In this document: piece by piece, positions 12,297 to 37,163 of the stretch
Position numbering within the stretch: the stretch's first letter is position 1
Layout: every line of letters starts with the position of its first letter
Source of the DNA: Fidelibacterota bacterium
GTDB lineage: Bacteria > Fidelibacterota > Marinisomatia > Marinisomatales > TCS55
Reading direction: 5' to 3'
Assembly: GCA_046861385.1 (NCBI GenBank)
Contig: JBHHTW010000020.1
Location: 1 to 39,127, forward strand
DNA: 39,127 nucleotides
Translations under genes and position numbers: made by a program
The notes under the pieces: generated by a model
Databases searched by the model: none
What the model saw: only the letters and a program-made list of their open reading frames with translations
Told to the model about the DNA's origin: nothing

Positions 12297-12319
12297 ATCA
12301 TAGTGCAATATGATTTGGA

Positions 12320-14674: not shown

Positions 14675-14679
14675 TTGTA

Positions 14680-14686
14680 CTCCTCT
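14680..14686 (-). promoter_or_regulatory. Shine-Dalgarno site (AGAGGAG) of the tandem propeller gene
   Basis: CTCCTCT on the + strand, 5 nt from the ATG at 14674. Confidence 0.75.
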
Positions 14687-14771
14687 TATTTTTGGTTTGA
14701 TTATTTTCATTAGAAAATACGTTCTGATAATAGGTGTTTCTTCCTAATGATCCAAAACATAATTCTCATTT

Positions 14772-16901
14772 TTATCGTATTACGATAAACTTTTTAAAGA
14801 CTGATTCGCCTTTCTGAAAAATGAGTGCTTGAGTATCCTGGTCGGTAATATCTTCTGTTACCTCGAAATAGGCAATATATAATCCAGACACAACAACTTG
14901 TCTGTACTGTGTTAATGAATTCCATTCCTGGTCTCCGCTGCCATCGTTATGATCAATGACTTCAATTAAATCTCCCCGTTCCGTAAATATTTTTATTTTG
15001 CATTTCCCCGGAATATTATAAAACATGACTTTATCCGACTGCCCCGGAAACTGCAACGCATTGTTCGAAATATGGTAAGGATTTGGCACGACCCGAATTT
15101 GATCCAATGTTGTTCCTTGTTTCCGTTTTAAAAAAGCCGGTTTACTTGTTTTCGTGTAAAAATGTGAACTTCTCAGCGAACCAGTTGGGTTAGTAATTCC
15201 TTCTGAATTCAAAGAACCATTACTCTTGGAAACAATATAATAATAGTAAGAAAATCCTCTGATCGCCGTTACATCATCAAATTGGTAAGTACCGGCAGGA
15301 CCGGAATATATTGGGTCCGGGCCAAAAACAGTATCCGGTTTAGCGACAGCGCGATAAATCTCATATCCGTCGAAGTTCGGATCCGATTCTGATTCGCTGG
15401 CTAACCAACTTAGAAAAATCCTGTCTCCGCCAGATTCAACATTAAAGACAGGTGGAGGCATTGGAGGTTCGGGTATCGATAAACCTGATTCATAATTTCT
15501 TTTTGCCCTGCTAAATGTCTGTAGAATAGAATCTTTTCCAGTGTAAACCCATGCATTCTTAAATTCATCCTTATCTGATGTCGTCCCGCTGCCGGGTAAA
15601 TCGTACGGTGCTATTCCATTTAAATATTCTTGTCCTACCCATTCACATAATTGTCTGGAAATTCCGTTAATTCCTTCTGCTTCAACGATGGTAATACTTT
15701 CCCCGGGCGCAAGAGTATAAGGGCCATAGGCGATCATTACATTTGTTCCACCCGGATCATTATGTACCGTCGATGGATCCTCTCCCGGATAGGAATCATA
15801 CGCACCATATTCCTCATCCATGCGGTTATTGCCTCCTTTATCTGAACCACCGTATGGATTTCCGCTCAACATTGTGTATAACCGGGTCATTTTCACAGCA
15901 TCATCGTCTGGCTGGTACCGTCCAATAGACGGATAAGTGTCACCGGCATGCCAACCCAGGAATACGGGTTGATTCGCATCATCACTTGTATCACTAGGAC
16001 TGGTATCCACATGAATTACGACTGAACCCACGTGGTGCGGTGATGTTAAACGTCCACTGCCGGTTTGTTTTGGTGCGCCCACATTATCAAATGAATTTGA
16101 AGCATTTTGCCCTAGCCAGCTAAAACCACAGCGCAGCCAATCAACAATTCCGGATGCTTCTGTGATAACATCATTCTGATGAAGCGGATAATCTTCACCA
16201 CGCTTTGTGACCCACATATGCTTCCCCCAGGATGCAGGTCCTCCAGCATTCCATGATGCTTCTCGGCTGCCGCTGTAACGAGTTCCCCATCCAATTCTAA
16301 CACCATGCAAGGTATCGTTGAGTTCTATCTCTTCATCCCAATCGGTATTTCCTGTATTTGTAAACGTAAATACCTTAATAAAATAATTATCATGATATTG
16401 CTGAGAGAATGCATAAATGGTTCGATTCATGGTTAGTCCCATGGATGTATTCACTATATTAATAATTTTTCTGTCGGAAGGAATGGTGCTGTCATACTCA
16501 TCAATGTCGCTCAGATATATCCCGGTGGTATTGATCCCATCAACATAGACAGACGGCGGTTCAAATTGCGCTATCTGTTTCAACTCCATAGGGAAAATAC
16601 TGGTTTCTACATAGCTCAAAGAAAAATAAATACCGTAATGCTCCCATGACTGGTTTTTATCATCCGTAAAATTTTCACATGCTAGCCAGGTTCGTTTAAT
16701 GACTGCATTATCCTGAAATTGGTAATCTGCTGGCCACCGTAATCCTTCATAATACGAATTATTCCAAGCCCGTTCAGATCCCCACGCTGAAAAATGACTT
16801 TGTAATGATCCGATTCGTATATACCGTTTTTCTGTTTCACCTACCTGCGAATAAATCACCGTAAATAATATGACAAATAATATTGTGAGTTTTTTAACCA
16901 C
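14772..16901 (-). CDS. Uncharacterised TBDR-partner protein 2 with FN3-like domain and variant CTD ('IRVVPNPY')
   Basis: GTG start overlapping the TBDR stop (TAGTG) and a signal peptide. 'GDRIFLSW...FDGYEIYRA...FDDVTAIRGFSYYYYIVS' is FN3-like. C-terminus 'IRVVPNPY...CKIKIFTERGDLI...VVSGLYIAYFEV...KFIVIR'. Confidence 0.8.
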   Translation of the reverse strand: MVKKLTILFVILFTVIYSQVGETEKRYIRIGSLQSHFSAWGSERAWNNSYYEGLRWPADYQFQDNAVIKRTWLACENFTDDKNQSWEHYGIYFSLSYVETSIFPMELKQIAQFEPPSVYVDGINTTGIYLSDIDEYDSTIPSDRKIINIVNTSMGLTMNRTIYAFSQQYHDNYFIKVFTFTNTGNTDWDEEIELNDTLHGVRIGWGTRYSGSREASWNAGGPASWGKHMWVTKRGEDYPLHQNDVITEASGIVDWLRCGFSWLGQNASNSFDNVGAPKQTGSGRLTSPHHVGSVVIHVDTSPSDTSDDANQPVFLGWHAGDTYPSIGRYQPDDDAVKMTRLYTMLSGNPYGGSDKGGNNRMDEEYGAYDSYPGEDPSTVHNDPGGTNVMIAYGPYTLAPGESITIVEAEGINGISRQLCEWVGQEYLNGIAPYDLPGSGTTSDKDEFKNAWVYTGKDSILQTFSRAKRNYESGLSIPEPPMPPPVFNVESGGDRIFLSWLASESESDPNFDGYEIYRAVAKPDTVFGPDPIYSGPAGTYQFDDVTAIRGFSYYYYIVSKSNGSLNSEGITNPTGSLRSSHFYTKTSKPAFLKRKQGTTLDQIRVVPNPYHISNNALQFPGQSDKVMFYNIPGKCKIKIFTERGDLIEVIDHNDGSGDQEWNSLTQYRQVVVSGLYIAYFEVTEDITDQDTQALIFQKGESVFKKFIVIR

Positions 16902-19900
16902 TAAAATTCCATAGTTATTCCAAACACAATATCTCTTGGATCTAAAAACGAAACAGATTTCAGGTTTGGCATATTTATATAGGCTTTCGTATCCAAAATC
17001 TTTTGTTCCTCAGAAGTGAGATGATCCGGATCAACAGGATTAAATGGCTGATATTTAACACCACTCTCACGGTAATCCCCTACGCGATCGTGTCCTTTTT
17101 CCGAACCTTCTTCCCAAGAGAAATGCAAGGATTCCATATAATCAATATAGTCATGTTTATCTGAAAAAACGGATGATTCTGCTGAACCTCGAGGTGTTCC
17201 TGCGGAGTTTAAGTATTTATTATTGGTTAGATTAGAAATATCCACAAACATCCGCATTTGAATATTGTTTAAACGAAATGATTTCGCTATTCTCAAATCC
17301 AAAAACCATTGATCCTTCCACTGAACATTATCAATGATACCAGGTTTATTGCTGGGGTTATATGTGGCGTACTCTCCCGATTCATAATTAAACAACACAC
17401 TCAGTACCCACTGGCTCAAGGGACGAATACCAATAATACTGGGTCCGAACCTTGATGGTGTAGTAAAATTAATGACTGAGTTTACATAAGGTTGTGCGTG
17501 AGGTTTGAATTGCTGAGGATTAACAATATCGGATTCTCTTTGCAAATTTGGATCTTCATAATATTTAGTTAATCCGAAATATCCGGAGGATTTGATCAAA
17601 TAAGTATAGTTGATGAATCCGGTAATATACTCACCCCTTACTTTTTCAACAACGAATTCAAAACCGCGTATATCCTCGTAATTATTGTTAGCAGCCTGTT
17701 TGTATTGGACAGATCGATTTAAGCTCTGATAAGAAATAGTTCCAATCTGGTTTGTTACATCTTTATAGTATGCAGTCAAGTTCATTAAATATGAGTCAAA
17801 AAATAATTGTGAATACCCCAATTCATAAGCAATGGTTTTTTCATAGAGCAAATTTGGATTGCCTAAGTTTGTGACCAATCCGTTTGATTCTCTTTGAATT
17901 CCGAATCGATATTGCGATCCCGGTTCAGAATAAAAATGACCATAATTAAAATACAATTTTGAAGATTCAGTAATGGGAAAGGAAACACCGAGTCTCGGAT
18001 GTAAAGAATACTGTGGTTTTGAACCTCTCGTTGCAACGGAATCTTCTATTTCATCTCCCAAGCCCTGACTCAAATTCTCGTCGTATGAATTTAAATTATA
18101 TACAATAGTATTTGAATTGGAATATTCACTCCTCAAACCAATATTAGCTATAAATCCTTCAAATTCCAGTTTATCCTGGGCATAAAACGACAACCGAAAA
18201 GGATTAACATTATACACAAGGTCCCTATTCCATGTAGACATTCCCGGATTGCTGGCAAAGGAATAAATATCCATCTTATTTGAAACCAATTCAAATCCGG
18301 TTTTAATTTGATTGTTTGGATTTATCTGGGAAGAATAATCAAATTTCCCTATGAAGGTTGAGATACTTGACCTGTCACGACCAATGTTCATCCAACCTCC
18401 AATATTCATACCATCAATACCTGTCACACCGTATCCCCAATATCCATATGGTGCTTCATCTACAAAATAATCCTCAAATATTTCATTTGTTTTGGTTGTA
18501 TCTCTTAACATGGTTTGATATGTTTTATAAAACTGGTTCGAGTATTGTATCAATATTTCATAAAAACGTTTGGGATCGAGCATATGATTTACTTTAACCC
18601 CAAATCCGGATCGATAAATGGTGGTGGGAGAGTAATATCCAGGCATATATAGGACGCTGTTTCCACTGGAACTATTTAATAGATTAGCTACGGATTGGTC
18701 GGATTTTAGAACATATCCTGTTGGAGTGGTTGTCCAGTTATAAGGGGAAACAGACTGTGTTTCACCATATTTTGTTACGACAGTGATATCGGTTTTATCT
18801 CCAATATCAACATTAATTTTCAACCGGGTATTCGTTCCAGTGTATCGATCCCTTGACAGTGGGAAAATAAACATTGATTCTTCACTATAGTGGGTCAGGT
18901 AAAATCGAGGATTCCCATATTTGAATACACCTGATATTGGTCCGCCAATCGCAACATCGATCGTTCTGTCCGGGTTCGTAATATCACCATTACGGCGATG
19001 TTCCCAAGAGAATAGGCGCCGGGCTTGTTCCGGCGATATATCATTATTAGGATTCATATCGGTTAAGGTCGCTGCGGATACGGCATTCCAACCCTCAAAA
19101 GACGGATATTGCCCTTCAGTATAATCATCCCATGCTCCGTTATTTGTTCCCGTCCAACAAACAGTTGTATCCATGTAAGGCCGCAAGAAATATGAGTTCG
19201 GATCAAACGTTGATAAACCAAAATGCTTTGGTGCCGGGGGTCGATAATAAACTGCCACTGATCCATGAAATCGGTCTGATTGCCCTTCTTTGTTCACAAT
19301 ATTTACAATTCCGGATCTTATGTTTCCGTACTCAGCGTTAAAACCGCCGGATTGAACCTGTATATTGGAAACACCCAATAAAGACGTGGTAGTAACTGGA
19401 GAAAAACTTCGAGCATCATTTTGAAGAAAACCGTCGATATAGACACCGGTTTGTGTTGACGAGCTGCCTCGAATGGATAAACCGCTAACACCCGCTTGTA
19501 AACCAATGACATCATCAATGTTTGACAGGGGCATCTTTTCAATCACCTCGTCTGTTATATTTATTTTGCTGGAAGTCACATCGGACTCTACCCATTCCCT
19601 TTCAGCTGTGACGGTAATTTCATCAAAATCCAAGGTTTCCAATTGCATTCTGCTATTTATATGAGTTGTCTGATCGATTCGAACAGTCACATGTTGGATG
19701 GACAGACGTGCATAGCCAATAATTTGAATGTTAAGTGTGTAATCGCCCGGAGGAACATTTAATATGACATAGTGACCATTCTGGTCCGTTACAGCACCCA
19801 ATTGCAATTCAGGTAAAAATATATTTACACCCGGTAGCGGGTCTCCTGTCTCAAATTCAGAAATGACTCCGCCAATTTTTCCCGATATTCCTGCGAAACA

Positions 19901-19954: not shown

Positions 19955-19963
19955 ACGGTAACT

Positions 19964-21274: not shown

Positions 21275-21284
21275 AAGATGACCT

Positions 21285-22307
21285 CTATAATGTGATTTGG
21301 AACGATAGTTGGTTTACACTGTCAAAAATACCAAATGGTGTATAAGCATAGTCGATACTTATTCCTTTATTTTTTAAAGCAAATAGAAATCCGATCCCAA
21401 ATGTAATTCCCCGTTCATCATAATTCCCATAATACCCAGTACGCAAATATAGAATTTTCAGTGGATTATACTCAATTCCGATATTGGTTCTTTCTGAGTA
21501 AGATCGTGGGTGTAGAGCATCTATCGACAACATAAATTTTCCGTCTGGGTTGAGCGGAGATTTTAAGAATCCCAAAAAACCGAATTGAGCCAGATCGATG
21601 GATCCTCCAATCGTAAATGTAAGCGGGAGTTGAAATCCTTCAGTTTGATATTTTATCTCTTTTGAAAAATTCCGAACCATCATTCCAAAAGAAAAATCTT
21701 TCCAACCTGTTTCATAAAGGGTTCCAAAATCGTATGCGAGTGTTGACACCCAATTTTTCACGGTGGTATTTGTTGTATCTGAATCAGGTATGATACTTCT
21801 ACCCAAGTATTGATAGGTTGATTTTACATGTCCCCCAACAGAAAATTTATCAGAAAGTGACTTTGCATATCCGGCGCCCATTGCAAGAGCTGTTGGTTTG
21901 ATAATTTCGGTATCTACATACCCGGATTCATTTTCCCATACCATGGTTCCCTGGACATCACCATATTCGACGGACTGAATACTGAAAGCAAAAACGCCAT
22001 AATATCCATTCATTGGAGCAAATCCGACACTTGCTGTTAAATGATTAATATCAGCAATCCATTGATTTCGACTAAAATTTGCGGATATGAGTTGAGTGGA
22101 TCTCGCCATTCCCGCTGGATTAAAGAAAACAGCATTGGATTGACCTTGCATGGTGGTCATGGCTTCTCCCATGGCTGTCGCTCTTGCATCAGACGCAACA
22201 CTTAAAAATTGAAAACCGGTCTGGGCGAGCTTAATGTCTTCACAATATCCAAGGGTAACGATGCCGATGATTAAAACTACTTTTCGTAAAATGGTATGAT
22301 TGATCAT
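21285..22307 (-). CDS. PorV/PorQ-family (FadL-like) outer-membrane beta-barrel, copy 1
   Basis: 'TGFQFLSVASDARATAMGEA...AVFFNPAGMA', 'LSDKFSVGG' and C-terminal 'IDYAYTPFGIFDSVNQLSF'. Confidence 0.85.
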   Translation of the reverse strand: MINHTILRKVVLIIGIVTLGYCEDIKLAQTGFQFLSVASDARATAMGEAMTTMQGQSNAVFFNPAGMARSTQLISANFSRNQWIADINHLTASVGFAPMNGYYGVFAFSIQSVEYGDVQGTMVWENESGYVDTEIIKPTALAMGAGYAKSLSDKFSVGGHVKSTYQYLGRSIIPDSDTTNTTVKNWVSTLAYDFGTLYETGWKDFSFGMMVRNFSKEIKYQTEGFQLPLTFTIGGSIDLAQFGFLGFLKSPLNPDGKFMLSIDALHPRSYSERTNIGIEYNPLKILYLRTGYYGNYDERGITFGIGFLFALKNKGISIDYAYTPFGIFDSVNQLSFQITL

Positions 22308-22310
22308 GGC

Positions 22311-22850
22311 TTATTCCTTATTGCGTATAACCAAATTAAATCCGGACGCTTCCTCCATCAAAAATTGTACTAAATATGATCCGGATGTAAAAGAGTATTC
22401 ATTTCGAAGAGCAATTTCATCATTACATTCGGCAACTGTTTCCAAATCAATGGATAGATTTGTCACATCAGAAAGATTATCACTAGTATCCCATAAACTC
22501 ATTTTTACAAATTTATTAGTATATATAACATAATCACCTGATGTGGTTATTTGCAGTACAGAATAGGTGGTATCTTCGCTTTTCGATATTTTTTGCAGTG
22601 TGTCCGGATTAAAAAATATTTCTGAATCCCATGCAATAAGTGAATCTATTTGCTCATCCACAGAATCTAATGAATCATCCAGCGTGTAGGACGTTACTGT
22701 TTTAAAGACAGTATCTGCACTAAACACTTGGCACGCTTTACCATCAATATCAGATATGGTATAAGATTCATCAGAATAGTTATCACAAGAAATAACTATC
22801 ATTAACACACCTAAGAGGTATAATATTTGTTTCATCTTTTTTCCCTTCAT
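22311..22850 (-). CDS. Small acidic lipoprotein, unknown function
   Basis: Lipobox-like 'IVISC' followed by DNYSDES. ATGA overlap with the upstream gene; alternative start at 22835. Confidence 0.7.
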   Translation of the reverse strand: MKGKKMKQILYLLGVLMIVISCDNYSDESYTISDIDGKACQVFSADTVFKTVTSYTLDDSLDSVDEQIDSLIAWDSEIFFNPDTLQKISKSEDTTYSVLQITTSGDYVIYTNKFVKMSLWDTSDNLSDVTNLSIDLETVAECNDEIALRNEYSFTSGSYLVQFLMEEASGFNLVIRNKE

Positions 22851-24889
22851 CGGATCACTATGAATTTTTCAATCCCGGCACTTCCTTTTTTAACGAATTC
22901 ACCGGTTTTCCAATCTGTATAATCATCCAGGACTTCAAAATGCGCAATATATATTCCGGATACAATCACCTGCCTGGAAGATGTAATGGAATTCCATGAT
23001 TCATCACCGCTGCCGTCCAAATGATCAATGGAATATATGAGGTCTCCCCGTTCAGTAAAGATTTTAATCCTGCATGTTGGAGGAATATCTAAGAACATGA
23101 TTCTATCAGGTCCGCCAACACCATATTGCATATCTCGTGCCTTAATATTATAAGGGTTTGGAACAACTCGAATGCGATCCAACGTCCCCGGTTGGCGCTT
23201 TAAGGATGCGGGTTGATTGGTGCGAGTATAAAATAAACTGCTTTCCATGGGGACTCCAGGAGCAATATCATTATTGGAGCCATCGCTCACTGTCGTTAAA
23301 TAATAATAATAATCAAAACCTCTTACAGCGGTTCTGTCTTCATATTTTGTCTCACCGGGACCCAATTCAGCGATAACCTCATAAGTGGTATCCGGAACAT
23401 GAATGGCCCGGTAAATTTTATAACCGGAGAAATTTGACCAGCTTTCTACTGAATTGCTCCATTCCAAAATAATACGATCGCCGCCTGAAGTGACTTGAAA
23501 TAAATCCGGCGGAGGAGGTTCATGATTCACGACCAGTCCATTATCCCAAACAGATTGAGCACGGGTAAATGTTTGAAATAAAGAATCTTTGCCTGACATC
23601 ACGAGAGTATTTTTTTCCGAATTACTAATGGCGCCACTCAGCCAGTCTGCTCCGATAGAATAATGCTTATCTCTGGATAAACCAGCGACTGCTTCAACTG
23701 TCACAATAACAATACTGTCACCATTTGCGATATCATAGGGGCCATATCCGCGGCCAAGTGAGTATCCACCACCAGTAGATCCAAACTCGTCAGCATTTTT
23801 AGTTCCCACTTCTTCTGCGTGACTTTTATTTGGATGACCAGAGCTCATGAGTAAATATTCTGTGGTCATCTTAGCCGTATTAAAATGATTATTACCGGAA
23901 TTGTAGGGTCCATCTGAATCGGGGTATGGTGTGGAGGAAGGCTGATTGGGATCATTGGATGGGTCCGACGTAGAAATATCAGCGTGTATTGTCATTACAC
24001 CGGCAAATTGAGATGAACCTAATCGTCCATCTCCACGATAGTTTGGGGCGCCGATATTATCCCCGGAGCCGCCCCATCCTCCATGCAGCCCTTGCCAGGC
24101 ATAAGATACACGAAAAGGATTGTCCGGATCGCTGGACAAGTAATTCCCATTTTCACCCAAGACCTCATTCATGGTGTTTCGGCCCCAGGTTGCATTTTGT
24201 GGCATCCAATTATACCCATAGGAACAGGACTCTTTTGTCATGGCATAACGTTCCTGCCAAAAGAAATAAACATCATCTAAATTTAGGTTATGTGTATTCC
24301 CTGCTGCATTGTATATACCAGTATTTTTAAATACATATTCAACAATAAAATAATTATCGTGGTAAGGCTGGCTAAATGCATGCACCCTTCTCGTCATTGT
24401 GATACCCAGACTGGTATTCAAGGTATTGATAATCATTCTATCGCCTGGAATCGTATTATCAACATCGTCTACCAGATCTGTAAAATCTAATTCGGACGCT
24501 GGCAGTCCATCGACATAAACTTGGGGACGGGCATACCGAGCTAATAAACGAAAATCCACAGGAATAAATTCTGCTAATTCATCCATGACACGTGGTCCCA
24601 CGTGTACGACTTTATAGGGGTAAGTTTGACCCGTACTTGGATCATCGTAGTTTACAGCCCCAATCCAAAGCCCTTTGGCTGCTTTAACATCCTGATAACG
24701 GTATTGCGCAGGCCATATGAGGCCGTCCTGTTGGTCAGGAATTAAATGACGACGTCCCACTTCAACTTCACACCCGCCACTACTGAACCAATCATGAAGC
24801 TGACCAACAGAAATCCAACGAGTTTCATCGGCAATTAAGGAGGAAATGATTCCAAATATTAGTAGACAGTTTCGAACTATGTTTTTCAT
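22847..24889 (-). CDS. Uncharacterised TBDR-partner protein 1 (paralog of 14772-16901) with FN3-like domain and variant CTD
   Basis: Signal peptide; colinear with partner 2 (for example 'DGLIWPAQYRYQD' vs 'EGLRWPADYQFQD', and 'AFSQPYHDNYFI' vs 'AFSQQYHDNYFI'). CTD 'IRVVPNPY...CRIKIFTERGDLI...KFIVIR'. Confidence 0.8.
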   Translation of the reverse strand: MKNIVRNCLLIFGIISSLIADETRWISVGQLHDWFSSGGCEVEVGRRHLIPDQQDGLIWPAQYRYQDVKAAKGLWIGAVNYDDPSTGQTYPYKVVHVGPRVMDELAEFIPVDFRLLARYARPQVYVDGLPASELDFTDLVDDVDNTIPGDRMIINTLNTSLGITMTRRVHAFSQPYHDNYFIVEYVFKNTGIYNAAGNTHNLNLDDVYFFWQERYAMTKESCSYGYNWMPQNATWGRNTMNEVLGENGNYLSSDPDNPFRVSYAWQGLHGGWGGSGDNIGAPNYRGDGRLGSSQFAGVMTIHADISTSDPSNDPNQPSSTPYPDSDGPYNSGNNHFNTAKMTTEYLLMSSGHPNKSHAEEVGTKNADEFGSTGGGYSLGRGYGPYDIANGDSIVIVTVEAVAGLSRDKHYSIGADWLSGAISNSEKNTLVMSGKDSLFQTFTRAQSVWDNGLVVNHEPPPPDLFQVTSGGDRIILEWSNSVESWSNFSGYKIYRAIHVPDTTYEVIAELGPGETKYEDRTAVRGFDYYYYLTTVSDGSNNDIAPGVPMESSLFYTRTNQPASLKRQPGTLDRIRVVPNPYNIKARDMQYGVGGPDRIMFLDIPPTCRIKIFTERGDLIYSIDHLDGSGDESWNSITSSRQVIVSGIYIAHFEVLDDYTDWKTGEFVKKGSAGIEKFIVIR

Positions 24890-25005
24890 CTATTGTATCT
24901 CATAATATGATTAAAAAAGGACGATGAAATTATCTTTACCTAAACCTGCCTGAATCAGAAAATTTTTACTTCTTTTTTCTTCGCACATCGGTTTTTCAAA
25001 GCCCT

Positions 25006-28931: not shown

Positions 28932-28988
28932 GTAATGGAATAAATACTATCAAGTAAATTCAAATATTAAAATAAACTACTGAAATAA

Positions 28989-30239
28989 ATGCACCCATTA
29001 ATTAACACAGTAAATAATAAACAGCCATTGTTGAGCGTGATAGAACAATACGGTAGTCCTGTCTATATTTATTCCGGAGAACAAATAAAGAAAAACCTGG
29101 ATAAATTGGACTCTGCATTAAATCAACATTTCCAAAAATATCATATTTGTTACGCCGTAAAAGCCAATAGTAATCCACATCTTCTTCAATTAATGAAATC
29201 ACATTTACCCAGATTAGGAGCTGATTGCTCAAGTCCCGGAGAAATTCATGCTTCAAAACTCGGCGGTATGCTACCAAATGAATGTATTTATACAGGGAAT
29301 TATGAATCTCCTGACGATTTGAAAGCTGCCTTGAATGCAGGTGTTCATTTGAACCTTGATGATATTAATTCCTTTTATCGATTAATGAAAATAGGTGTCC
29401 CAGAAGAGATTTCGTTTAGATTAAATCCCGGATTTGGAAAAGGCTCCTTTTCTCAAATTATTACGGGAGGAAAAAAAGCAAAATTCGGCGTTCCCCATTA
29501 CGATATTATTAATGCGTACAGAATTGCAAAAGAAAATGGCATTACAAAATTCGGTATCCAATGCATGACCGGATCCGGTATATTGGACCCAGCTTATTTT
29601 AGTGAATTGATCACAGCCATTCTAAAGACTGTTAAAGCTATACATAAGGAATTGGACATCCAAATGAGTTTTATCAGTATGGGTGGAGGTTTAGGCATTC
29701 CCTATAATGATGAAGAATCACCCCTTGATTTTAACCGGATTTTTTCGGGGGTTTCACAAATATATAATAATCATTTTGAAAAAGAGAATATTGTCTCTCC
29801 GGAATTATGGATTGAGCCTGGAAAATCCATTATCGGCGATACATGTTTTTTGTTAACAACAGTCACGGGCGTAAAGAATAGTTATCAAACATTTATCGGA
29901 TTGGACGCCGGTATGGAAAAATTCATGCGACCCGTATTATACGGAGCATATCATCGTATTTATAAAGTGGGTGAGCCGGATGCCCCCATTAAACTAACGG
30001 CTGATTTTACCGGTCAAATTTGTGAGAATACTGATAGATTGGCTGTCGATCGAAAATTCCCATCAGTTCAGGAAGGTGATTTAATTGCGATTATGGATGC
30101 AGGGGCATACGGATTTTCAATGTCTCATAATTTTAATACAAGACCTCGAGCAGCTGAAGTTTTGCTGGAAGGCAATCAATCCCGGCTAATCAGAAAAAGG
30201 GAGACTATAGAAGATATCTTTCGGACTTGTGAAATATAA
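28989..30239 (+). CDS. lysA: Diaminopimelate decarboxylase
   Basis: 'YGSPVYIY', PLP lysine in 'YAVKANSN', 'AKFGV', 'MGGGLGIPY', 'IEPGKSI', 'RPVLYGAYH', 'GQICENTD' and 'AGAYGFSMSHNFNTRPRAAEV'. Confidence 0.93.
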   Translation: MHPLINTVNNKQPLLSVIEQYGSPVYIYSGEQIKKNLDKLDSALNQHFQKYHICYAVKANSNPHLLQLMKSHLPRLGADCSSPGEIHASKLGGMLPNECIYTGNYESPDDLKAALNAGVHLNLDDINSFYRLMKIGVPEEISFRLNPGFGKGSFSQIITGGKKAKFGVPHYDIINAYRIAKENGITKFGIQCMTGSGILDPAYFSELITAILKTVKAIHKELDIQMSFISMGGGLGIPYNDEESPLDFNRIFSGVSQIYNNHFEKENIVSPELWIEPGKSIIGDTCFLLTTVTGVKNSYQTFIGLDAGMEKFMRPVLYGAYHRIYKVGEPDAPIKLTADFTGQICENTDRLAVDRKFPSVQEGDLIAIMDAGAYGFSMSHNFNTRPRAAEVLLEGNQSRLIRKRETIEDIFRTCEI

Positions 30240-30275
30240 TATACTATTGTTGATATTGTAATTACCCTGTAATTG

Positions 30276-31292
30276 CTAAAACCCAAATGATAAAGATAAC
30301 TGATTTACATTTTTGAGATGGCCAAAATCCGTTAGAGAGTAATCGATATTTAGTTTATTTGTTCCTACGGGAATTTTAATTCCACCGCCAAATGCAGCTG
30401 TACCAACAGCTTTTACTTGACCAATATGTCGACTTCCTGCGCGAATTGAAATCATATTCAAGATAGTCAATTCCATTCCCACATTGAAAAATTCAACATT
30501 ATCATTCGGATGGACTATATCAATAGCCAACAAAGATTTTATTTTTTCATTTGTGTAAATATCTAAAGCAAAACTGGTGGTTAAACTCATGGGTATATCC
30601 CATTCCTCCAGTTCTAATTCGGCTCGGATGAACTCATTGTTTCCTTTAACAACTGGATCTGGATCAGTCGTAACCAGATTAGCTCGTCCTGAGAACTTCA
30701 TGGAAGTTCCATAATTGCTGAGAATAAAACCAATTCGAAAATTTCGCCATTCAGAATGATAAATTGAGCCCACATTAATCGCCAAAGATGAAGCAGACAT
30801 TGACCAAATTCGTTCATGAATATATTTTCCAACAACACCAAATGCGAATCTATCGGTAACACTTTTTCCAAAAGCCAAACCCACAGAAAAATCACCTCCA
30901 TCAAAGAATTCTCCGGTTCCTTCAGGTTGGGTTACTGTTGTTACTTCATCTTTCGGAATCGTCACTGATGTTGCATATAAACCCACAGCTCCAACACCGG
31001 GTAAAGGAATTGAAAATGTGAAGTTGCTGCAATTGATCCCTGCAATCCAATTAATATGGCTTGCTGATATTTCGCCCTGAGAAATAAATGCCAAACCAGC
31101 AGGATTCCAATAAACTGATGATGCATCATCAACAATTGCGGTGGCTGCATCTCCCATACCTGTTCCACGTGCACCCATACCGATTTTTAAAAATTGAGCA
31201 GTTGTAGTACCAGATTTGGTAATTGTTTGTGAATTTCCAAAGGATAATCCAATGAGTAAAACAAAAATAACATTGTAAATAATATTCTTCAT
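30276..31292 (-). CDS. PorV/PorQ-family outer-membrane beta-barrel, copy 2
   Basis: 'GTTTAQFLKIGMGARGTGMGDA...DASSVYWNPAGLA', 'TDRFAFG' and 'IDYSLTDFGHLKNVNQLSLSFGF'. ATGA overlap with the upstream partner gene. Confidence 0.88.
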   Translation of the reverse strand: MKNIIYNVIFVLLIGLSFGNSQTITKSGTTTAQFLKIGMGARGTGMGDAATAIVDDASSVYWNPAGLAFISQGEISASHINWIAGINCSNFTFSIPLPGVGAVGLYATSVTIPKDEVTTVTQPEGTGEFFDGGDFSVGLAFGKSVTDRFAFGVVGKYIHERIWSMSASSLAINVGSIYHSEWRNFRIGFILSNYGTSMKFSGRANLVTTDPDPVVKGNNEFIRAELELEEWDIPMSLTTSFALDIYTNEKIKSLLAIDIVHPNDNVEFFNVGMELTILNMISIRAGSRHIGQVKAVGTAAFGGGIKIPVGTNKLNIDYSLTDFGHLKNVNQLSLSFGF

Positions 31293-34200
31293 TTTATCAC
31301 CGCCAATCTTCCAATATGTTCAGCTCCACCATCAGATTTAACATGATACACATAATATCCTGCGGCGATGTCCTGATCTTCGCTATTTAAGAGATTCCAG
31401 GACTCAGTACCATCAAACAATGTTCCTGAATGATTAATAGTTTTCACATGGTCTCCGGCAATTGTATAGATATTTATTTCACATTTTTGAGGAAGATGGA
31501 TAAAATCAACTCTTCTCTCACCTCTTCCCATCGAAAATACTGCAGGTGGCGCTACTTCAAAACTGGATGAAGCAACATATGGATTTGGCACTACTTTGAT
31601 TCTATCCATTTCATCACCCACATTATCCACATTAACCACAGGGTTTAAAAACGTAATTTTATAACTATCCGTTGACTCCAAAGTACAGAATGGTTTTGAA
31701 GTATAAAATTTTAATCTGGCACCATCTGGTGGTGTTACAAATGGAGAATCTATCGTAACGGCCCAACTGGGAGTTGGTGTTCCATTAAATGAAAACACTG
31801 GAGTGATTTTATCACCAATACTTACTTCACCGTCGCTATCATTATCCTCAAACAAGACATCCAATTGCAGATCATCATCAATATTTATTGCTTTGAAGCG
31901 AACAGGTTGTGGATTGATAAAAACGGATGTGTCCAAAATAACATCTGAAAATTCGATTATCATATCTCTTGGATAAAGCATTCCTCCAAAAGTGCTCAAT
32001 GCATATGAAAAATCAAAATATTTAGTTGCATTAACTTGTCCATTCGAATCTATCCATTTAATTGAATCTAGCGAAGGTACATCTAGATCAAGGATATAAA
32101 CCTCGTATGGACCTAGGGGAAGAATTTTATTCCACCCTTTGTACAGCTCATTTAATGAGAGCGCATCCCATACAACTGTTGTATCATTGCTTGTATCATT
32201 CAGCGAAATCATTTCCGCATGAATATAATTATCATTACCCAGAGGATATATAGAGACATTATATGTTATATCTGAATCAAGGTTGATATAATCCAACATT
32301 GACACTTCAAATTTTGCATCTGAAAATCCTTCAAAATGGTCAATGTTATATTCAGCTTTCTGATATCCCGCTACCGGTCCGTTTGGAACAACCTCAACCA
32401 CATTTGTCTCCCCAATGGTTCTGGAACACTCTAGTGGTGCAAGATTTCCATCAATACTTCCCCTATCATAAGCAGTAACTGCATAATAATATGTCAAACC
32501 ATTTACAACAGGCGTATCAACAAGTGCCCGATATAGTCCTGTATTTTTCCCCATATCAAAATGATAACCCTCTGCAGAAGGAACGGGGTGAGGTCCTTCA
32601 TATTCATTATCATAATCATATTGTGCAATGGGAATATATCCCACCACAATACCTTGATTATTTGTAATCTCGTCGCCCCATTCGCCCTTAACTAAACTAC
32701 GATATACCTTATATCCCTCGAAGTCAACACCATTGACTGCATCCACTGATCGTTCGGATAAATCATCCCAGATTAATGTAACTTTATTATTACCGGGTAT
32801 GGCAACGACGTTTGGCTTATCGGGTGGTTTTGTAAAATTAAAGTTCAGTTTATATATCCAATCAGCTACCTGAGCATTTCCAATCAAATCGTCTTTCCCT
32901 TGTCCCATAATTAACGCTATCGAAAACCGTTTGATTTCCTCAGGATCTAAAGAGAAATATCCAGACCCAAAAATAAAAATGTTATCGGCTTCTTGGGCAA
33001 TATCGTCGCCTGTTGCGAATGTACCGGGTTTCATTCGTAACCACATTCTAGCGTCTTGTTGAGCTTCTTCCTGACCATAGATGGGAGCCCAGAAACTGGT
33101 AATACCAAGCATATCCGACTCATCTCCATCTGTTAATTCATAATCCGGTTCTCCGTCATCAGGAATTCCATTGCCATTCAGATCGTCACTTTTTCCATCT
33201 AAATCACCCCAATCATCAATACGCCCATCACCATCATCATCGATTCCATTCCACATTTTTGAATCCCAGTAATCTTTCGCTTCCGCTACATCTGCTAATG
33301 CTTCCTCATCAGTGGCATCCCAATCTCCGTCATCATCAAAATCATTATACTGACTCTCATCAATAAAACCATCAAGATCATTATCGATATCATCGTTATC
33401 TATACCAGGACTTTCAAGGAATTTAAAACCCAACCATCCTAATTCTTCCCAAGGAATATTATAGTCATTTCCGGATCCTTCCTTATCCCACGCATAAACC
33501 ATACCACTCACGTCCACAGTCTCACCGGTGTAACTGTCTAAACCGGTGTTATCAACAAACCCGGCATAATCATCTGCAAAATCTCCACCACCGCCGATAT
33601 GAGGGTCACCTATCATTCCGACGACGACTTTTTCCAACCGCTTTTCAGATATATTTTTTACTTCATATTGAAAAAAGATAATATCCTCAGCGACTGTGGC
33701 GGCGTACTGATAACCCCGTACGGTTACTTCTACACCTAATCCCCGAATTGAAGAATCTGACGGTACCGGATAATATTCGAATTCATCGTTATACCGATCA
33801 TCCATTTTATAATAGCTTTCCATATCAGCAACGATTACATCATTTCCAAATTGACCGGGCCATTGTAAAAAGCCATCTTCATCAGAAGGAAATAGGTCTC
33901 CCCATGTTTCAGACTTATTGGATACTGCAATGTCTTCATCACCGGCATAAGCATAACCGGGTAATGGTTCCCATCCGACTACTTGTGCTCCAGGGCTCGC
34001 TTCACCCCCGTCAAGCATCCCGTCTGAAAATATTACAATTGTGTCTCCATCAATATCAACAACCTCTGCTCCGACTACTGCACCAAATTCATATGCATAA
34101 CCATGACCAGAATATGAGGGCCATTCAAGTGAAGGCTCAGTATTAGGCCTGCCGATAGAGCCATAATTGTAGAAAAGAGTTCGGATGCTATTCCCTTCAT

Positions 34201-34408
34201 GCATGCCAAATTTGCGATCATCATGAGCCATCGTTTTTGTCATCCTTTGATTCTTTTTTGCAGCCATATATGTATCAAAATCCTGTTTTGACCAAGTTTT
34301 CATTGAACCATCGGGTCTTTTAAGTGGTTGCGAGAATAGAAAAGAGATCGCAATTATAGAAAAAATAATATTTCGAGAACTGCCTGTATTACTATTAATT
34401 ATTTGCAT
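31289..34408 (-). CDS. Large uncharacterised TBDR-partner protein 3 with Asp-rich Ca-binding repeats, FN3-like domain and variant CTD ('IKVVPNPY')
   Basis: ATG at 34408 with AGGGA 7 nt upstream (the ORF track starts at 34441). Signal-like segment; DxDxDG repeats; 'KVTLIWDD...FEGYKVYRS...NGLTYYYAVTAYD'; CTD 'IKVVPNPY...FIHLPQKCEINIYTIAGDHV...IAAGYYVYHV...GRLAVIK'. Confidence 0.82.
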   Translation of the reverse strand: MQIINSNTGSSRNIIFSIIAISFLFSQPLKRPDGSMKTWSKQDFDTYMAAKKNQRMTKTMAHDDRKFGMHEGNSIRTLFYNYGSIGRPNTEPSLEWPSYSGHGYAYEFGAVVGAEVVDIDGDTIVIFSDGMLDGGEASPGAQVVGWEPLPGYAYAGDEDIAVSNKSETWGDLFPSDEDGFLQWPGQFGNDVIVADMESYYKMDDRYNDEFEYYPVPSDSSIRGLGVEVTVRGYQYAATVAEDIIFFQYEVKNISEKRLEKVVVGMIGDPHIGGGGDFADDYAGFVDNTGLDSYTGETVDVSGMVYAWDKEGSGNDYNIPWEELGWLGFKFLESPGIDNDDIDNDLDGFIDESQYNDFDDDGDWDATDEEALADVAEAKDYWDSKMWNGIDDDGDGRIDDWGDLDGKSDDLNGNGIPDDGEPDYELTDGDESDMLGITSFWAPIYGQEEAQQDARMWLRMKPGTFATGDDIAQEADNIFIFGSGYFSLDPEEIKRFSIALIMGQGKDDLIGNAQVADWIYKLNFNFTKPPDKPNVVAIPGNNKVTLIWDDLSERSVDAVNGVDFEGYKVYRSLVKGEWGDEITNNQGIVVGYIPIAQYDYDNEYEGPHPVPSAEGYHFDMGKNTGLYRALVDTPVVNGLTYYYAVTAYDRGSIDGNLAPLECSRTIGETNVVEVVPNGPVAGYQKAEYNIDHFEGFSDAKFEVSMLDYINLDSDITYNVSIYPLGNDNYIHAEMISLNDTSNDTTVVWDALSLNELYKGWNKILPLGPYEVYILDLDVPSLDSIKWIDSNGQVNATKYFDFSYALSTFGGMLYPRDMIIEFSDVILDTSVFINPQPVRFKAINIDDDLQLDVLFEDNDSDGEVSIGDKITPVFSFNGTPTPSWAVTIDSPFVTPPDGARLKFYTSKPFCTLESTDSYKITFLNPVVNVDNVGDEMDRIKVVPNPYVASSSFEVAPPAVFSMGRGERRVDFIHLPQKCEINIYTIAGDHVKTINHSGTLFDGTESWNLLNSEDQDIAAGYYVYHVKSDGGAEHIGRLAVIK

Positions 34409-34418
34409 TATCAAATCC

Positions 34419-37163
34419 CTAAAATTCATATTTAATGCCAAGATAAACTCTTCTTGGGGTTGAGTACCAGTTGGGTCTATTTATCCATTGTGGAGTGGAT
34501 TCATCACCAAAACGTCCCAATGAATAATCAGCGCTTCCGGAGCTATCCCAGACATAATTTTGATTTTGATAATCAAAGACATTATAAATTTTTATAAATA
34601 GCTGGAAATGATAGTCATTAAACTTTAAAGACTTGTAGGCAGTGATATCTAAATTTTGACGTGTCGGTTTTCTACCGGAATTTTCCTCTGCAACCTGAAC
34701 CGTCGCGTTTACATCCGATGGAGTATAAGGATAACCACTTTCAATTTTACCGATAGAACTGATTTTCCAATTTCCAGGTTTTCCAATATTCAAAACAAAT
34801 CTAAACGCATGCGTCTGGTCCCAACTTAATGGAACAACTTTCCGAAGCGGTTCGGTAGATAATCGATAATCTGTTCTAGTAGAAGTTGGATCCGATTCAT
34901 TTCCTACAGCCACCATATATGTATAATCAATAGATCCTGATATAAAATGGGTAAATCGCTGATCAAATGATACAGTTACACCTTTTGTATTTCCCCAGTC
35001 CCTATTAATAAATAAAGCATAGGAATCAGAGCCACCCGGGAGAACATAAATTTTTTGACCTAATAGGTTTCTCATATCCCGATAAAACAATTTCAAATAA
35101 ATTGCAGAATTCAAAGTCAAAGCTTGTTCAACTCCCACTTCGTAGCTAATCGTTTTCTGTGGCTTTAAATCAGCATTACCAACATCTGTTTTAATGACAC
35201 CTTTCAAAATATTGAATTCTGCATTTTCAAATAAATACTTATAAGATGGCATTTGAAAGAAATGACCGTAGGAAAAGAATAATTTGCCTTCAGTTGTAAT
35301 GGGAAATGCCAGAGAAAATCGTGGACTTATTTGTGTTTTTGGAGTGGCATCTTTTACTTCGTCTTTTTGTGGATTATTCCAATCAAGAGCAACTTTACCA
35401 TCCGGATTATAATAGTCGTAACGAAGACCCACATTTAGAACCATGTCTGGTAATTCAATTTTATCCTGAATAAATGCAGATATTTCAACCGGTTTATTGT
35501 GGAATGAATTGGCATATAGATTGTCATCTTCGAATGCTGCATTTCCTGGTATCTCATCACCATTTGTATTTGTAGCATTATTCCAAACTCCATTGCCGTT
35601 AATATCATTAAATGGTTCACCTTCATCATAATTGCCATTTCTATTAATATCATCCCATGGTTCATCACGTAAGTCGACTGTTAAAGAATTTTTCTCTAAT
35701 TGAAAATCATGTTGCCTAACCTCGATTCCTGTTTTGAATTCATGGCTGTCACCGATCTGTGTTGTTAAATGCCCTTGAATCAAATTCGTTGTTGTTAATC
35801 GATCATATCTTGTATTATTGGTCCCGCCAGTATAGAATTCATAATTATCATCCTGTCTATAATAATCGGACGAAACATACCTTAAATCATCTATTTTTTT
35901 ATATGCATAATATTGATATCTATTTATTGCGTGTGAAAATCCAATAGAATAAAATGTTTTTATTCCTAATTGATGATTGAATATGAAAATGTGATTACTT
36001 GCAACCTTATTATTTTGAAGGTGCCCATCTTTAATAAATCGCCTTGAATGGCTGTAACTCTTCCAATAGTTATTCTCGTGTAATAACGTGTATTGGAACT
36101 TGATTGTTTTATTCAGATAATATGTCAGCTTACTTTGAAAGTTCAATTTATCATTTGGATTTAATGAAAAAACTCTCTGTTGGTCCTTAGTTTGTACCAG
36201 ACTCAATGTGTCTCCAAGTTCCATTGCGTTACGTCTTTGTTCAATTGAGTTATATTTAGTAACTCCAAAAAGAGTCCCACCCCGGTTAAAACCTCTTAAA
36301 GAAGTAAAAAATTTAATATTATTAAATATGGGGATTGGACCTGATAAAGATGCCTCCACTTCACGAATATTCTCTGGATCATAAGGAGCAATTTCTTTTT
36401 TAATCGTCTTATTTTCTTCTATTGAATAATTAGTGTACATGTCACCACCCATGATGGAAAGTGATCCTCTATACATATTACTGGGATCTTTTGTGACAAT
36501 ATTTACTACTCCAGACATCGCTTGTCCATACTCTGCGCTAAATGAGCCAGTTATTACAGATAGTTCCTGGATAGCATTTGTACTGATATCCACTCCTAAT
36601 CCCTGGTGAAAAGGATTTACATTGGGTATACCATCAATGAGATATGAAACTTCGCTGGAACGTCCACCTCTAAAATGTAATTCCCCTCCAGCATCAACAG
36701 TTACACCTGCTTTGGTCTGCACGATTGCCTGGAAAGATTCGATAGGAGAATTCTCTATCACATCAGCGCCAATGATCGCTGCGCTTGCTGTTGCATCTTT
36801 TTGTATCATGGAACGCGATGCTATTACAGTTACTTCTTCTTCAGATTCCAATACTTTTATAGATAATCGTGCATTGATTTCTGTTGAAAGGTCAGATTGA
36901 ATTATGACCTGCTCAATTATCATCGTGCTGTAACCAATCATCATGACTCTCACTGTATAGTCACCTGGAGGAACATTCAAAATATAATAGTTTCCATCAC
37001 CATCAGTTGCGGCACCTAACACGGTGTTTTCAATGATAATATTTGCACCTGGCAAGGGGGTTCCTTCTTCGTCGGTTACACGACCTTTAATTTTACCTGT
37101 TGTGCCAGCTATAATATATGTAACAATTAATGTTGTTGTTATTATGAGTTTTAATAACTTCAT
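34419..37163 (-). CDS. TonB-dependent receptor 3 with N-terminal carboxypeptidase-regulatory-like domain
   Basis: 'GTTGKIKGRVTD', 'HFRGGRSSEVSYLIDG', 'TGSFSAEYGQAMSGVVNIVTK', 'FIQDKIEL', 'SPRFSLAFPI' and C-terminal 'PRRVYLGIKYEF'. Confidence 0.93.
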   Translation of the reverse strand: MKLLKLIITTTLIVTYIIAGTTGKIKGRVTDEEGTPLPGANIIIENTVLGAATDGDGNYYILNVPPGDYTVRVMMIGYSTMIIEQVIIQSDLSTEINARLSIKVLESEEEVTVIASRSMIQKDATASAAIIGADVIENSPIESFQAIVQTKAGVTVDAGGELHFRGGRSSEVSYLIDGIPNVNPFHQGLGVDISTNAIQELSVITGSFSAEYGQAMSGVVNIVTKDPSNMYRGSLSIMGGDMYTNYSIEENKTIKKEIAPYDPENIREVEASLSGPIPIFNNIKFFTSLRGFNRGGTLFGVTKYNSIEQRRNAMELGDTLSLVQTKDQQRVFSLNPNDKLNFQSKLTYYLNKTIKFQYTLLHENNYWKSYSHSRRFIKDGHLQNNKVASNHIFIFNHQLGIKTFYSIGFSHAINRYQYYAYKKIDDLRYVSSDYYRQDDNYEFYTGGTNNTRYDRLTTTNLIQGHLTTQIGDSHEFKTGIEVRQHDFQLEKNSLTVDLRDEPWDDINRNGNYDEGEPFNDINGNGVWNNATNTNGDEIPGNAAFEDDNLYANSFHNKPVEISAFIQDKIELPDMVLNVGLRYDYYNPDGKVALDWNNPQKDEVKDATPKTQISPRFSLAFPITTEGKLFFSYGHFFQMPSYKYLFENAEFNILKGVIKTDVGNADLKPQKTISYEVGVEQALTLNSAIYLKLFYRDMRNLLGQKIYVLPGGSDSYALFINRDWGNTKGVTVSFDQRFTHFISGSIDYTYMVAVGNESDPTSTRTDYRLSTEPLRKVVPLSWDQTHAFRFVLNIGKPGNWKISSIGKIESGYPYTPSDVNATVQVAEENSGRKPTRQNLDITAYKSLKFNDYHFQLFIKIYNVFDYQNQNYVWDSSGSADYSLGRFGDESTPQWINRPNWYSTPRRVYLGIKYEF

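Follow-up and report, generated by a model that had tools for sequence, protein, structure and literature searches.

Textbooks attribute the success of the Bacteroidota on polymers to uptake of the SusC/SusD type. The present work concerns a stretch of 39,127 nucleotides (nt) from a Fidelibacterota bacterium (NCBI GenBank assembly GCA_046861385.1, contig JBHHTW010000020.1, positions 1 to 39,127 of the forward strand; the whole stretch is referred to as the window), in which each of three TonB-dependent receptor (TBDR) genes is followed by a gene for an exported partner protein, and which also encodes two barrels of the PorV/PorQ family. The reading put forward here, to which we give a probability of roughly 60%, is that the partner would be held on the surface by its own C-terminal tail and a private PorV/PorQ-like barrel and would do the job of SusD beside the TBDR, as judged from sequence comparison and by analogy with the systems described below.

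Several non-SusC TonB-dependent transporters (TBDTs) of Bacteroides are described as having lipoprotein lids other than SusD, namely BtuG, XusB, DUF4625, DUF4876, DUF4374 and BT4056 (Price et al., bioRxiv 10.1101/2023.03.17.533168). The same authors ask why lids are confined to Bacteroidota and suggest that other diderms cannot surface-display lipoproteins (10.1101/2023.03.17.533168). A second set of precedents comes from type IX secretion (the T9SS), where PorZ and PorU are reported to keep their C-terminal tails and to be anchored through PorQ and PorV, respectively (PMC10202324; PMC12365241), and where cognate PorV-like barrels have been proposed to protect tails from cleavage (PMC12365241; PMC10202324). 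In the accounts given there, anchoring by a cognate barrel is known for components of the secretion apparatus and for type B adhesins, and for nothing else (PMC12365241; PMC10202324).

Three TBDR-partner modules in the window

TBDR 1, TBDR 2 and TBDR 3 are each encoded upstream of the partner of the same number, and the two barrels were designated barrel A (21285–22307) and barrel B (30276–31292). The genes of the three modules and the tail-coding regions of the partners are as follows (aa, amino acids; ORF, open reading frame).

34419–37163, minus: TBDR 3, 914 aa; CarboxypepD_reg 67.8 bits, Plug 47.1 bits and TonB_dep_Rec_b-barrel 82 bits (Pfam); N-terminal CarboxypepD_reg, plug and 22-strand-type barrel
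31289–34408, minus: partner 3, 1039 aa from the ATG at 34408 (the longest ORF, 1050 aa, starts from a TTG at 34441); signal peptide, predicted N-domain of the supersandwich type containing an Asp-rich acidic insert, then FN3-like and other beta domains and the variant tail
31292–31636, minus: variant C-terminal sorting domain of partner 3
30276–31292, minus: barrel B, PorV/PorQ family, 338 aa; NF033709 180.1 bits
25006–28152, minus: TBDR 2, 1048 aa; CarboxypepD_reg 64.8 bits, Plug 30.9 bits
22847–24889, minus: partner 2, 680 aa; signal peptide, predicted supersandwich (residues ~19–450), helical linker, FN3-like domain, variant tail
22850–23194, minus: variant C-terminal sorting domain of partner 2
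22311–22850, minus: small lipoprotein, 179 aa; signal peptide ending in ...VISC; no Pfam or NCBIfam family
21285–22307, minus: barrel A, PorV/PorQ family, 340 aa; NF033709 180.8 bits
19964–21274, minus: lipoprotein with TIG (49.4 bits) and beta-propeller-like parts, 436 aa; lipobox-type N terminus
16901–19954, minus: TBDR 1, 1017 aa; CarbopepD_reg_2 64.7 bits, Plug 33.1 bits
14772–16901, minus: partner 1, 709 aa; paralogue of partner 2, GTG start, no barrel gene of its own
14775–15119, minus: variant C-terminal sorting domain of partner 1

The coordinates that the initial annotation of this DNA had given for the TBDR, partner and barrel genes matched the ORF list, with every one of these genes on the minus strand. 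Its description of the layout was likewise borne out: directly downstream of all three TBDRs lies a gene for an exported protein without a Pfam or NCBIfam family, a divergent C-terminal domain is common to all three partners, and each of the two clusters holds one PorV/PorQ-family barrel. Both of the overlaps it had reported could be read in the sequence, namely an ATGA at 31289–31292 that joins the stop of partner 3 to the start of barrel B, and a TAGTG at 16901 in which the stop of TBDR 1 and the GTG start of partner 1 share one base. The small lipoprotein gene between partner 2 and barrel A, which overlaps partner 2 by 4 nt, was absent from that annotation. The gene for the TIG lipoprotein sits between barrel A and TBDR 1, and the same gene is kept in other phyla. 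Taken as a whole, the window probably contains three copies of a conserved outer-membrane uptake module, of which modules 1 and 2 use one barrel.

The variant tail and the PorV/PorQ-family barrels

For analysis of the shared C-terminal domain, the last 125 residues of the three partners were searched against six-frame ORFs of the whole genome (2.43 Mb, 97.9% complete). The variant tail was found on 11 proteins at E < 1e-5, and the few weaker matches were ordinary type A tails, which occur on approximately 37 proteins of the genome. Alignment of 144 variant tails with 37 type A tails of the genome by hhalign gave a probability of 98.4% (E = 8.8e-15, 87 columns), and the tails of the two partner families (partner-1/2 and partner-3) aligned with each other at a probability of 99.4%. 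Like type A domains, the variant tails are Ig-like beta-sandwiches at the extreme C terminus, and the PNP(F/Y), GxY and terminal K/R motifs of type A appear in their alignment as VVPNPY, G-Y and a terminal VIK/VIR. The two classes differ in an insertion of ~12–20 residues after the VVPNPY strand of the variant tail, and in a nearly invariant Cys within P-x-x-C-x-I-x-I and an invariant His, both of which are lacking in the ordinary type A tails of the same genome; tails of the partner-1/2 family have a second insertion before the last strand. When a ten-tail profile was searched against all Protein Data Bank (PDB) sequences at E ≤ 1, only the tails of PorZ (5m11, E = 3e-4) and PorU (6za2) were retrieved, and the modelled tail of partner 3 could be superimposed on PorZ (5m11_A) with Z = 10.6 and a root mean square deviation of 2.5 Å over 92 aligned residues at 23% identity. 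The PorU-tail model gave weak matches on two paralogues only (26.9 and 19.2 bits). On these profile comparisons the variant tail is a divergent T9SS-type sorting domain, homologous to type A, in keeping with its original description as a variant sorting domain.

Type B was also considered as the class of this tail and was ruled out by the curated models, with no CHU_C match on the window partners. Two paralogues gave CHU_C scores of 24.6 and 26.2 bits, below the cut-off of 27, and the type B model TIGR04131, which was silent on controls too, had no match in the genome.

The assignment of the barrels to the PorV family was made with NF033709 (PorV_fam), for which the cut-off is 90 bits; both window barrels score about twice that value, as the initial annotation would lead one to expect, and seven other module barrels score 110–210 bits. 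All module barrels fall below the cut-offs of the equivalog models, with 36–83 bits on the PorV model (NF033710, cut-off 250 bits) and 56–118 bits on the PorQ model (NF033711, cut-off 220 bits), and barrels A and B are also below the PorV2 equivalog cut-off. In the whole genome 11 PorV_fam barrels exceed the family cut-off, and 9 of these lie inside modules. The remaining two are the best PorV candidate, on contig C2 (195 bits on NF033710, below 250), and a barrel beside SprA on contig C30. Orthologues of barrel A from Fidelibacterota, Calditrichota, Ignavibacteriota and KSB1 loci group together with 85/85 support.

As for the secretion machinery itself, whose presence elsewhere in the genome had been singled out as a check, SprA (SprA_N 123.7 bits, a 2082-aa frame) and the PorU sortase (584.7 bits against a cut-off of 420) are present. 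The PorP_SprF model had no match in the genome and was silent on controls too. Downstream of SprA on C30, genes were seen for a 552-aa protein with a FlgD_ig-type tail (7375–9033, counted within C30:18000–30000) and two PorV_fam-like barrels (9170–10174 and 10158–11021 on the same count), the barrels scoring 91.6 and 51.2 bits on PorV_fam. These genes may encode the PorZ/PorQ-type attachment pair of the phylum.

Conservation of the module within the genome and across phyla

The arrangement found in the window recurs throughout the genome. Seven strict, one-strand TBDR-partner-barrel triads were located: module 3 in the window itself, one on each of C52, C56 and C67, and a further three on C89. 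Module 2 of the window is an eighth, with the lipoprotein gene inserted. Further variant-tail proteins are encoded at one rearranged locus on C13, and partner 1 and C89_102353 are without a barrel of their own. Among the 19 TBDR-like ORFs of the whole genome, 9 have a variant-tail protein directly downstream. Chance would not come near to producing this TBDR-partner-barrel pattern.

A scan of one genome per species yielded 477 relatives of partners 1 and 2, and 80 loci were kept for a survey of gene order. In these loci a TBDR lies directly upstream, on the same strand, of 118 of the 125 variant-tail proteins, and of the 121 TBDRs that reach 800 aa or more, 112 have a variant-tail protein as the next gene product. 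A barrel is present in 63 of the 80 loci; in the 99 cases that could be evaluated, a PorV_fam barrel was the next gene in 28 and the second gene in 43. Where no barrel is near, the TBDR and partner are mostly the last two genes of a conserved unit of seven, in the order TBDR, partner, lipoprotein, barrel, TIG lipoprotein, TBDR, partner, which is the arrangement of the window; most of the 80 loci have an ORF of ~180–340 aa between partner and barrel. The lipoprotein encoded at this position is ~337 aa long in some Fidelibacterota loci (e.g. 12073–13083, plus, in locus L062), with an HmuY score of 23.4 bits, below the cut-off of 27. The partner-3 family gave a yet more regular picture over 20 loci from 20 genomes, with the barrel as the next (13) or second gene (7) in all 20 and a TBDR upstream in 19 of 19.

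Modules of this kind are carried by Fidelibacterota, Calditrichota, KSB1, Ignavibacteria and related groups. Within the phylum, a partner-3 family match at E ≤ 1e-50 was found in 27 of 31 high-quality genomes, and the partner-1/2 profile matches 147 of 151 genomes, many of them through the tail and FN3 part only. SusD_RagB was detected in 8 of 41 genomes of the phylum, at one place in each. The only SusD_RagB-like ORF of the genome studied here lies outside the window (416 aa, at 5013–6263, minus, of a region excised from C60) and scores 39.5 bits over a partial stretch. Two statements about the wider distribution are supported by the survey: homologues of the partners are linked to TBDR and PorV-family genes elsewhere, with gene order kept in 80 and 20 loci from several phyla of the Fibrobacteres–Chlorobi–Bacteroidetes (FCB) group, and the arrangement would be an alternative in non-Bacteroidota FCB bacteria, with SusD scarce in the phylum and the triad spread across FCB phyla.

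These counts bear directly on what the barrel might do. It could be a dedicated shuttle that takes the partner over from SprA, as PorP/SprF does for type B cargo, after which the partner would be released or otherwise attached and would act in the manner of a surface glycan-binding protein (SGBP), free or loosely bound at the surface and recognizing glycans or peptides of the locus, with no capping of the TBDR. The conserved double module has two partners to one barrel, with no separate barrel for partner 1; in 28 of the 99 cases no PorV_fam barrel occurs within two downstream genes; and a carrier concept for cognate barrels is already in print (PMC12365241; PMC10202324). Against a shuttle stand the near-obligate adjacency of TBDR and partner (118/125, 112/121 and 19/19), the start/stop overlaps, which are the pattern of stoichiometric SusC/SusD-type pairs and not of accessory binding proteins, and the resemblance of the tail to the retained tails of PorZ and PorU above all others. 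A pure shuttle role for the barrel is therefore considered unlikely.

Family and fold of the partner proteins

Partners 1–3 have signal peptides without a lipobox and are thus not lipoproteins; across the genome, borderline Cys motifs, judged by eye, were seen in only 2 of 11 copies of the partner. The full-length alignment of partners 1 and 2 shows 38% identity (E = 7e-142), and what partner 3 has in common with them by sequence is the last ~120 residues only (34% identity, E = 1e-12). No Pfam family was matched by partners 1–3 at E ≤ 0.01, nor any meaningful NCBIfam family, and 8 of the 11 variant-tail partners of the genome have no Pfam match at E ≤ 0.001–0.01. The partner-1/2 family has at least 1435 members; among the best 120, none has a precomputed Pfam domain, names where given are 'fibronectin' or 'hypothetical', and the sources are Fidelibacterota/Neomarinimicrobiota, Calditrichota, KSB1, WOR-3, Melioribacteraceae and Delongbacteria. 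The partner-3 family has at least 1005 members, among them Calab_3298 of the cultured Caldithrix abyssi. A search of a sequence-cluster atlas returned 'hypothetical protein' clusters only.

Structural models were obtained with AlphaFold2 for partner 2 (mean predicted local distance difference test score, pLDDT, 84.8) and partner 3 (pLDDT 75.4, with the Asp-rich insert at low confidence). Residues ~19–450 of partner 2 resemble the non-catalytic N-domains of glycoside hydrolase (GH) family GH15, GH65, GH94 and GH116 enzymes (VIA-align, Z = 17.6–18.8 with 238–286 residues aligned), the named enzymes behind these matches being glucoamylase, glucodextranase and members of GH65, GH94 and GH116. VIA-align was more informative here than Foldseek, which, when the model of partner 2 was run against the PDB, retrieved nothing beyond FN3 and GH94 N-domains at low TM-scores. 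Residues 33–498 of partner 3 resemble the N-domains of glucodextranase and glucoamylase (Z = 17.4, 240 aligned). According to the models, the N-domain in both families is a beta-rich, galactose-mutarotase-like supersandwich, and no recognizable catalytic domain was found in either family. With the same N-domain fold and the same tail in both, the two partner families have one architecture in common; the hhalign comparison of the families covered the tail only, so the case for a shared N-domain comes entirely from the fold matches. The predicted fold is typical of carbohydrate-binding or carbohydrate-processing domains.

Two assignments of the partners were tried and rejected. An identity as SusD-like proteins was ruled out, as no SusD/RagB model matches and a beta fold is predicted in place of a helical tetratricopeptide repeat (TPR) fold; indeed, 0 of the 21 ORFs of at least 150 aa in the window match SusD_RagB or SusD-like models of Pfam (E ≤ 0.01) or NCBIfam, in accord with the absence of a recognizable SusD/RagB-like protein remarked on from the start. 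Identity with a known enzyme was ruled out in the same way, no enzyme family model matching any partner. The possibility that the partners would score as one or the other, raised beforehand as a check, was thus answered in the negative by Pfam, NCBIfam and fold comparison alike.

A surface enzyme of a less familiar sort could still be imagined, in which a mutarotase-like or lyase-like supersandwich acts on polymer or oligomer before import and is not a lid. Stand-alone galactose-mutarotase-like enzymes and polysaccharide lyases do occur among the fold matches (3mwx, 5no8 and 3a0o; Z ~12–14), and there is a long form in which the partners' N-domain is fused to a beta-helix (DUF1565/Beta_helix) and ends in an ordinary tail of type A. 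The highest-ranking fold matches, however, are the non-catalytic N-domains of GH15, GH65, GH94 and GH116, enzyme family models remain silent for every partner, and the same architecture is found at loci for starch, peptidoglycan and peptides. Taking these points together, we regard an enzymatic role as improbable. The long form itself, a 1447-aa protein encoded on contig C1 of another genome (3157–7500, minus, as numbered in the excised locus), has a partner-type N-domain with FN3 ahead of the beta-helix and does not lie beside a TBDR; similar frames of 1450–1470 aa were seen in two other genomes. Among the long frames, of which one was examined, no fusion of a partner to a TBDR or barrel was seen, no systematic search for longer forms having been made.

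The receptors and their degradation-locus context

All three TBDRs of the window have an N-terminal CarboxypepD_reg-like extension before the plug (64–68 bits), and their plug and barrel domains are intact by Pfam. The SusC/RagA model TIGR04056 gave 63.6, 51.5 and 74.7 bits for TBDR 1, 2 and 3, respectively, against a cut-off of 368.25, with only the N-terminal extension and plug covered. For TBDR 2, the PDB sequence matches are to the plug regions of PqqU and YncD only (E = 3e-4).

Gene content around the modules points to the breakdown of several different polymers. The module on C56 lies between an alpha-amylase gene and a gene for a starch-binding CBM48/CBM20/X25 protein with a type A tail, and by gene content this is a Sus-like starch locus, in which the SusD and SusE/F equivalents would carry secretion tails. 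Around the module at 127955 on C89 (region 119500–137500) are genes for an LD-carboxypeptidase, a D-Ala-D-Ala dipeptidase, a GH18 protein with a tail, NamZ (an exo-MurNAc-ase), an amino-acid permease and a tailed M14 peptidase, which by annotation looks like a peptidoglycan-type, salvage-like locus. Such a locus is of interest here, since one cultured species of the phylum is described as living on exogenous muropeptides (PMC11652737). The C67 module adjoins genes for M16 and M1-like peptidases, and another module on C89 has an SSF symporter and a ceramidase-like gene. In other phyla the double module is accompanied by TIG lipoproteins, SGL/NHL propellers with a tail, GHL10 proteins with a tail and a Reg_prop/Y_Y_Y histidine kinase, and in four surveyed loci (L011, L018, L025 and L033) a GHL10 protein with a type A tail is encoded downstream of the double module. 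On balance, these neighbourhoods suggest that the modules are cores of loci resembling polysaccharide utilization loci (PULs), each for a different polymer.

In the window, the double module is accompanied by genes for a PD40 protein and for three proteins with tails, namely a propeller (type A tail), an Amidase_3 protein and a GHL10 protein. Those with assigned coordinates are as follows.

12320–14710, minus: propeller-like protein; ordinary T9SS tail of type A (Por_Secre_tail 44 bits, TIGR04183 43.6 bits)
8801–11302, minus: Amidase_3 (MurNAc-L-Ala amidase) with Big_5 and a type A T9SS tail
5448–8591, plus: GHL10 glycosyl-hydrolase-like protein (127 bits) with Big_5 and a type A-like tail

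The propeller gene is downstream of partner 1 in the same gene run, and the Amidase_3 gene hints at cell-wall material as the substrate of the window modules. Between 38925 and 8801 nearly all ORFs are on the minus strand, the exception being a gene for an Orn/DAP decarboxylase (28989–30239, plus), an unrelated metabolic gene that separates the two clusters. Metabolic genes also fill positions 31–5425 (transglutaminase-like, FAA hydrolase, class V aminotransferase, cupin and M20 peptidase).

The uptake role assigned to the modules comes from this gene context, and the TBDR sequences are far from every characterized transporter. Both points would suit modules with no part in uptake, built as a surface structure (adhesin- or S-layer-like) or as an export or assembly unit for the partner, the neighbouring enzymes being coincidental. 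Such an origin is nevertheless very improbable given that the receptors retain intact plug and barrel domains, that the modules form operon-like runs with permeases (SSF and amino-acid permease), degradative enzymes and sensor kinases, and that at least eight diverged copies are present in a small genome, as is typical of substrate-specific uptake loci.

Proposed mechanism

In the pathway that we favour, the partner would cross the inner membrane by Sec, as its signal peptide suggests, and then the outer membrane via the SprA translocon. Its tail would stay uncut and be retained by the cognate barrel, in the way that PorQ and PorV retain those of PorZ and PorU; homology and gene adjacency both point this way. 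The partner would then serve as a non-lipoprotein substrate-binding subunit beside or on top of the TBDR, to judge from gene position, coupling and locus content, and the accessory enzymes and binding proteins of the module loci would make use of T9SS tails and not lipid anchors. Export by the T9SS, binding of tail to barrel and capping of the TBDR are each plausible in the light of synteny, homology and analogy. A more specific and distinctly more tentative version, to which we would give somewhat less than even odds, is that TBDR, partner and barrel form a stable three-protein 'utilisome', with the barrel in place of a lipid anchor and the supersandwich protein as substrate-loading lid in place of SusD.

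Several observations weigh against the proposal that the partner is barrel-anchored and does the job of SusD. With respect to secretion, GldK scores 32.6 bits, below the cut-off of 350, and the GldL/GldM models (TIGR03513, TIGR03517 and PF12081) have no match in the genome, these models giving scores below cut-off on controls as well. The curated type A models TIGR04183 and PF18962 do not match partners 1–3 at E ≤ 0.01, so T9SS export of the partners is something that we infer, and the PorU match from the PDB search is marginal (E = 0.017). With respect to the barrels, a quick tree grouped the non-module barrels, which a maximum-likelihood tree did not; the latter is a long-branched polytomy in which module barrels are unseparated from the PorV candidate and the SprA-locus barrels, and for this reason no separate clade of module barrels is claimed. 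A separate barrel is lacking for partner 1, and many loci have one barrel for two partners, an arrangement as compatible with a shuttle as with a fixed anchor. Across the eight modules the divergence of TBDR, tail and barrel is correlated (Mantel rho 0.59–0.70, p 0.007–0.009), a correlation that is expected because whole modules were duplicated and that is consistent with co-adaptation without showing binding. YidC P1 domains also match the supersandwich (Z ~11–12.6), so that sugar binding is not proven by the fold. Finally, the locus survey counts were obtained with hidden Markov models built from the TBDRs, barrels and tails of the genome itself, at thresholds of our own choosing and on longest-ORF, uncurated genes.

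The proposal of the initial annotation, that a T9SS-exported partner held by a PorV-like barrel takes the place of SusD, is thus partly supported. The nature of the tail, the barrel family, the conservation of the triad, the presence of SprA and PorU, a partner that is not SusD and the PUL-like loci speak for it, and the GldK score and silent GldL/GldM models leave the inventory of secretion genes confirmed in part.

Comparison with known systems

A TBDR with a secretion-tailed partner and a private PorV/PorQ-type barrel is apparently an undescribed alternative to the SusC/SusD system of Bacteroides. A full-text literature search, the scope of which was articles without supplementary files, retrieved no paper that describes the triad as an uptake module occurring in repeated copies, and in a keyword look-up of the Caldithrix genome paper and the Fidelibacter description the triad is unmentioned. 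Those parts of the Fidelibacter description (PMC11652737) that the look-up covered also make no mention of TonB or T9SS.

The likeness to SusC/SusD (RagA/RagB) lies in a SusC-sized TBDR with an N-terminal CarboxypepD_reg domain, a coupled partner gene directly downstream, many diverged copies, and loci that contain degradative enzymes, binding proteins, permeases and sensors. The two systems part company in the components themselves. The partner here is a predicted beta supersandwich without SusD-like sequence, whereas SusD is a helical TPR protein; it is mostly a non-lipoprotein, with a T9SS-type tail and a barrel from the PorV/PorQ family; the SusC/RagA model is not satisfied by the TBDRs (51–75 bits against 368); and the accessory proteins carry type A tails in place of lipid anchors. 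Oceans, sediments and the subsurface harbour the groups concerned in abundance (Fidelibacterota, also known as SAR406/Marinimicrobia, and Calditrichota, KSB1, Ignavibacteria and relatives), and with the module recognized, loci for polymer degradation should be better predicted in FCB bacteria that have not been cultured. If the proposed role is correct, a function would be provided for two 'hypothetical protein' families of the sizes given above, and the many PorV/PorQ paralogues, 11 in a 2.4-Mb genome, would be explained.

The lids described by Price et al. (10.1101/2023.03.17.533168) are comparable in that they are non-SusD proteins encoded beside TBDTs and proposed as caps. As characterized there, they are surface lipoproteins, mostly specific to Bacteroidota and associated with small substrates (10.1101/2023.03.17.533168), whereas the partners of the present modules combine a Sec signal with a T9SS-type tail and a private barrel. 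The module appears to offer a concrete, testable answer to the question of why SusD-type lids are confined to Bacteroidota, in that a secretion tail and a barrel would be used instead of a lipid anchor. Should the three proteins indeed form a utilisome, this would be a general and possibly older solution to the uptake of large substrates in FCB phyla outside Bacteroidia-type lineages, and the near-confinement of SusD-type and other lipoprotein lids to Bacteroidota would be explained.

Type B C-terminal domains with PorP/SprF barrels (e.g. SprB-SprF of Flavobacterium) have in common with the modules a special class of tail and a co-encoded private barrel; the tail here is nearer to type A, PorZ and PorU, and the barrel belongs to PorV/PorQ and not to PorP/SprF. 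In the PorZ-PorQ and PorU-PorV pairs of the Porphyromonas gingivalis attachment complex, a retained Ig-like C-terminal domain is bound by a FadL-like barrel of the PorV/PorQ family, and by sequence both the tail and the barrel of the present modules belong to homologous families. Each of those pairs occurs in one copy and is itself a part of the secretion apparatus, whereas the components here are multiplied and TBDR-linked and the barrels fall below the PorV and PorQ cut-offs. Because the tail matches PorZ and PorU and the barrels belong to the PorV/PorQ family, PorZ-PorQ and PorU-PorV are the closest mechanistic precedent, and if the utilisome exists as proposed, their anchoring principle would have been recruited many times for nutrition.

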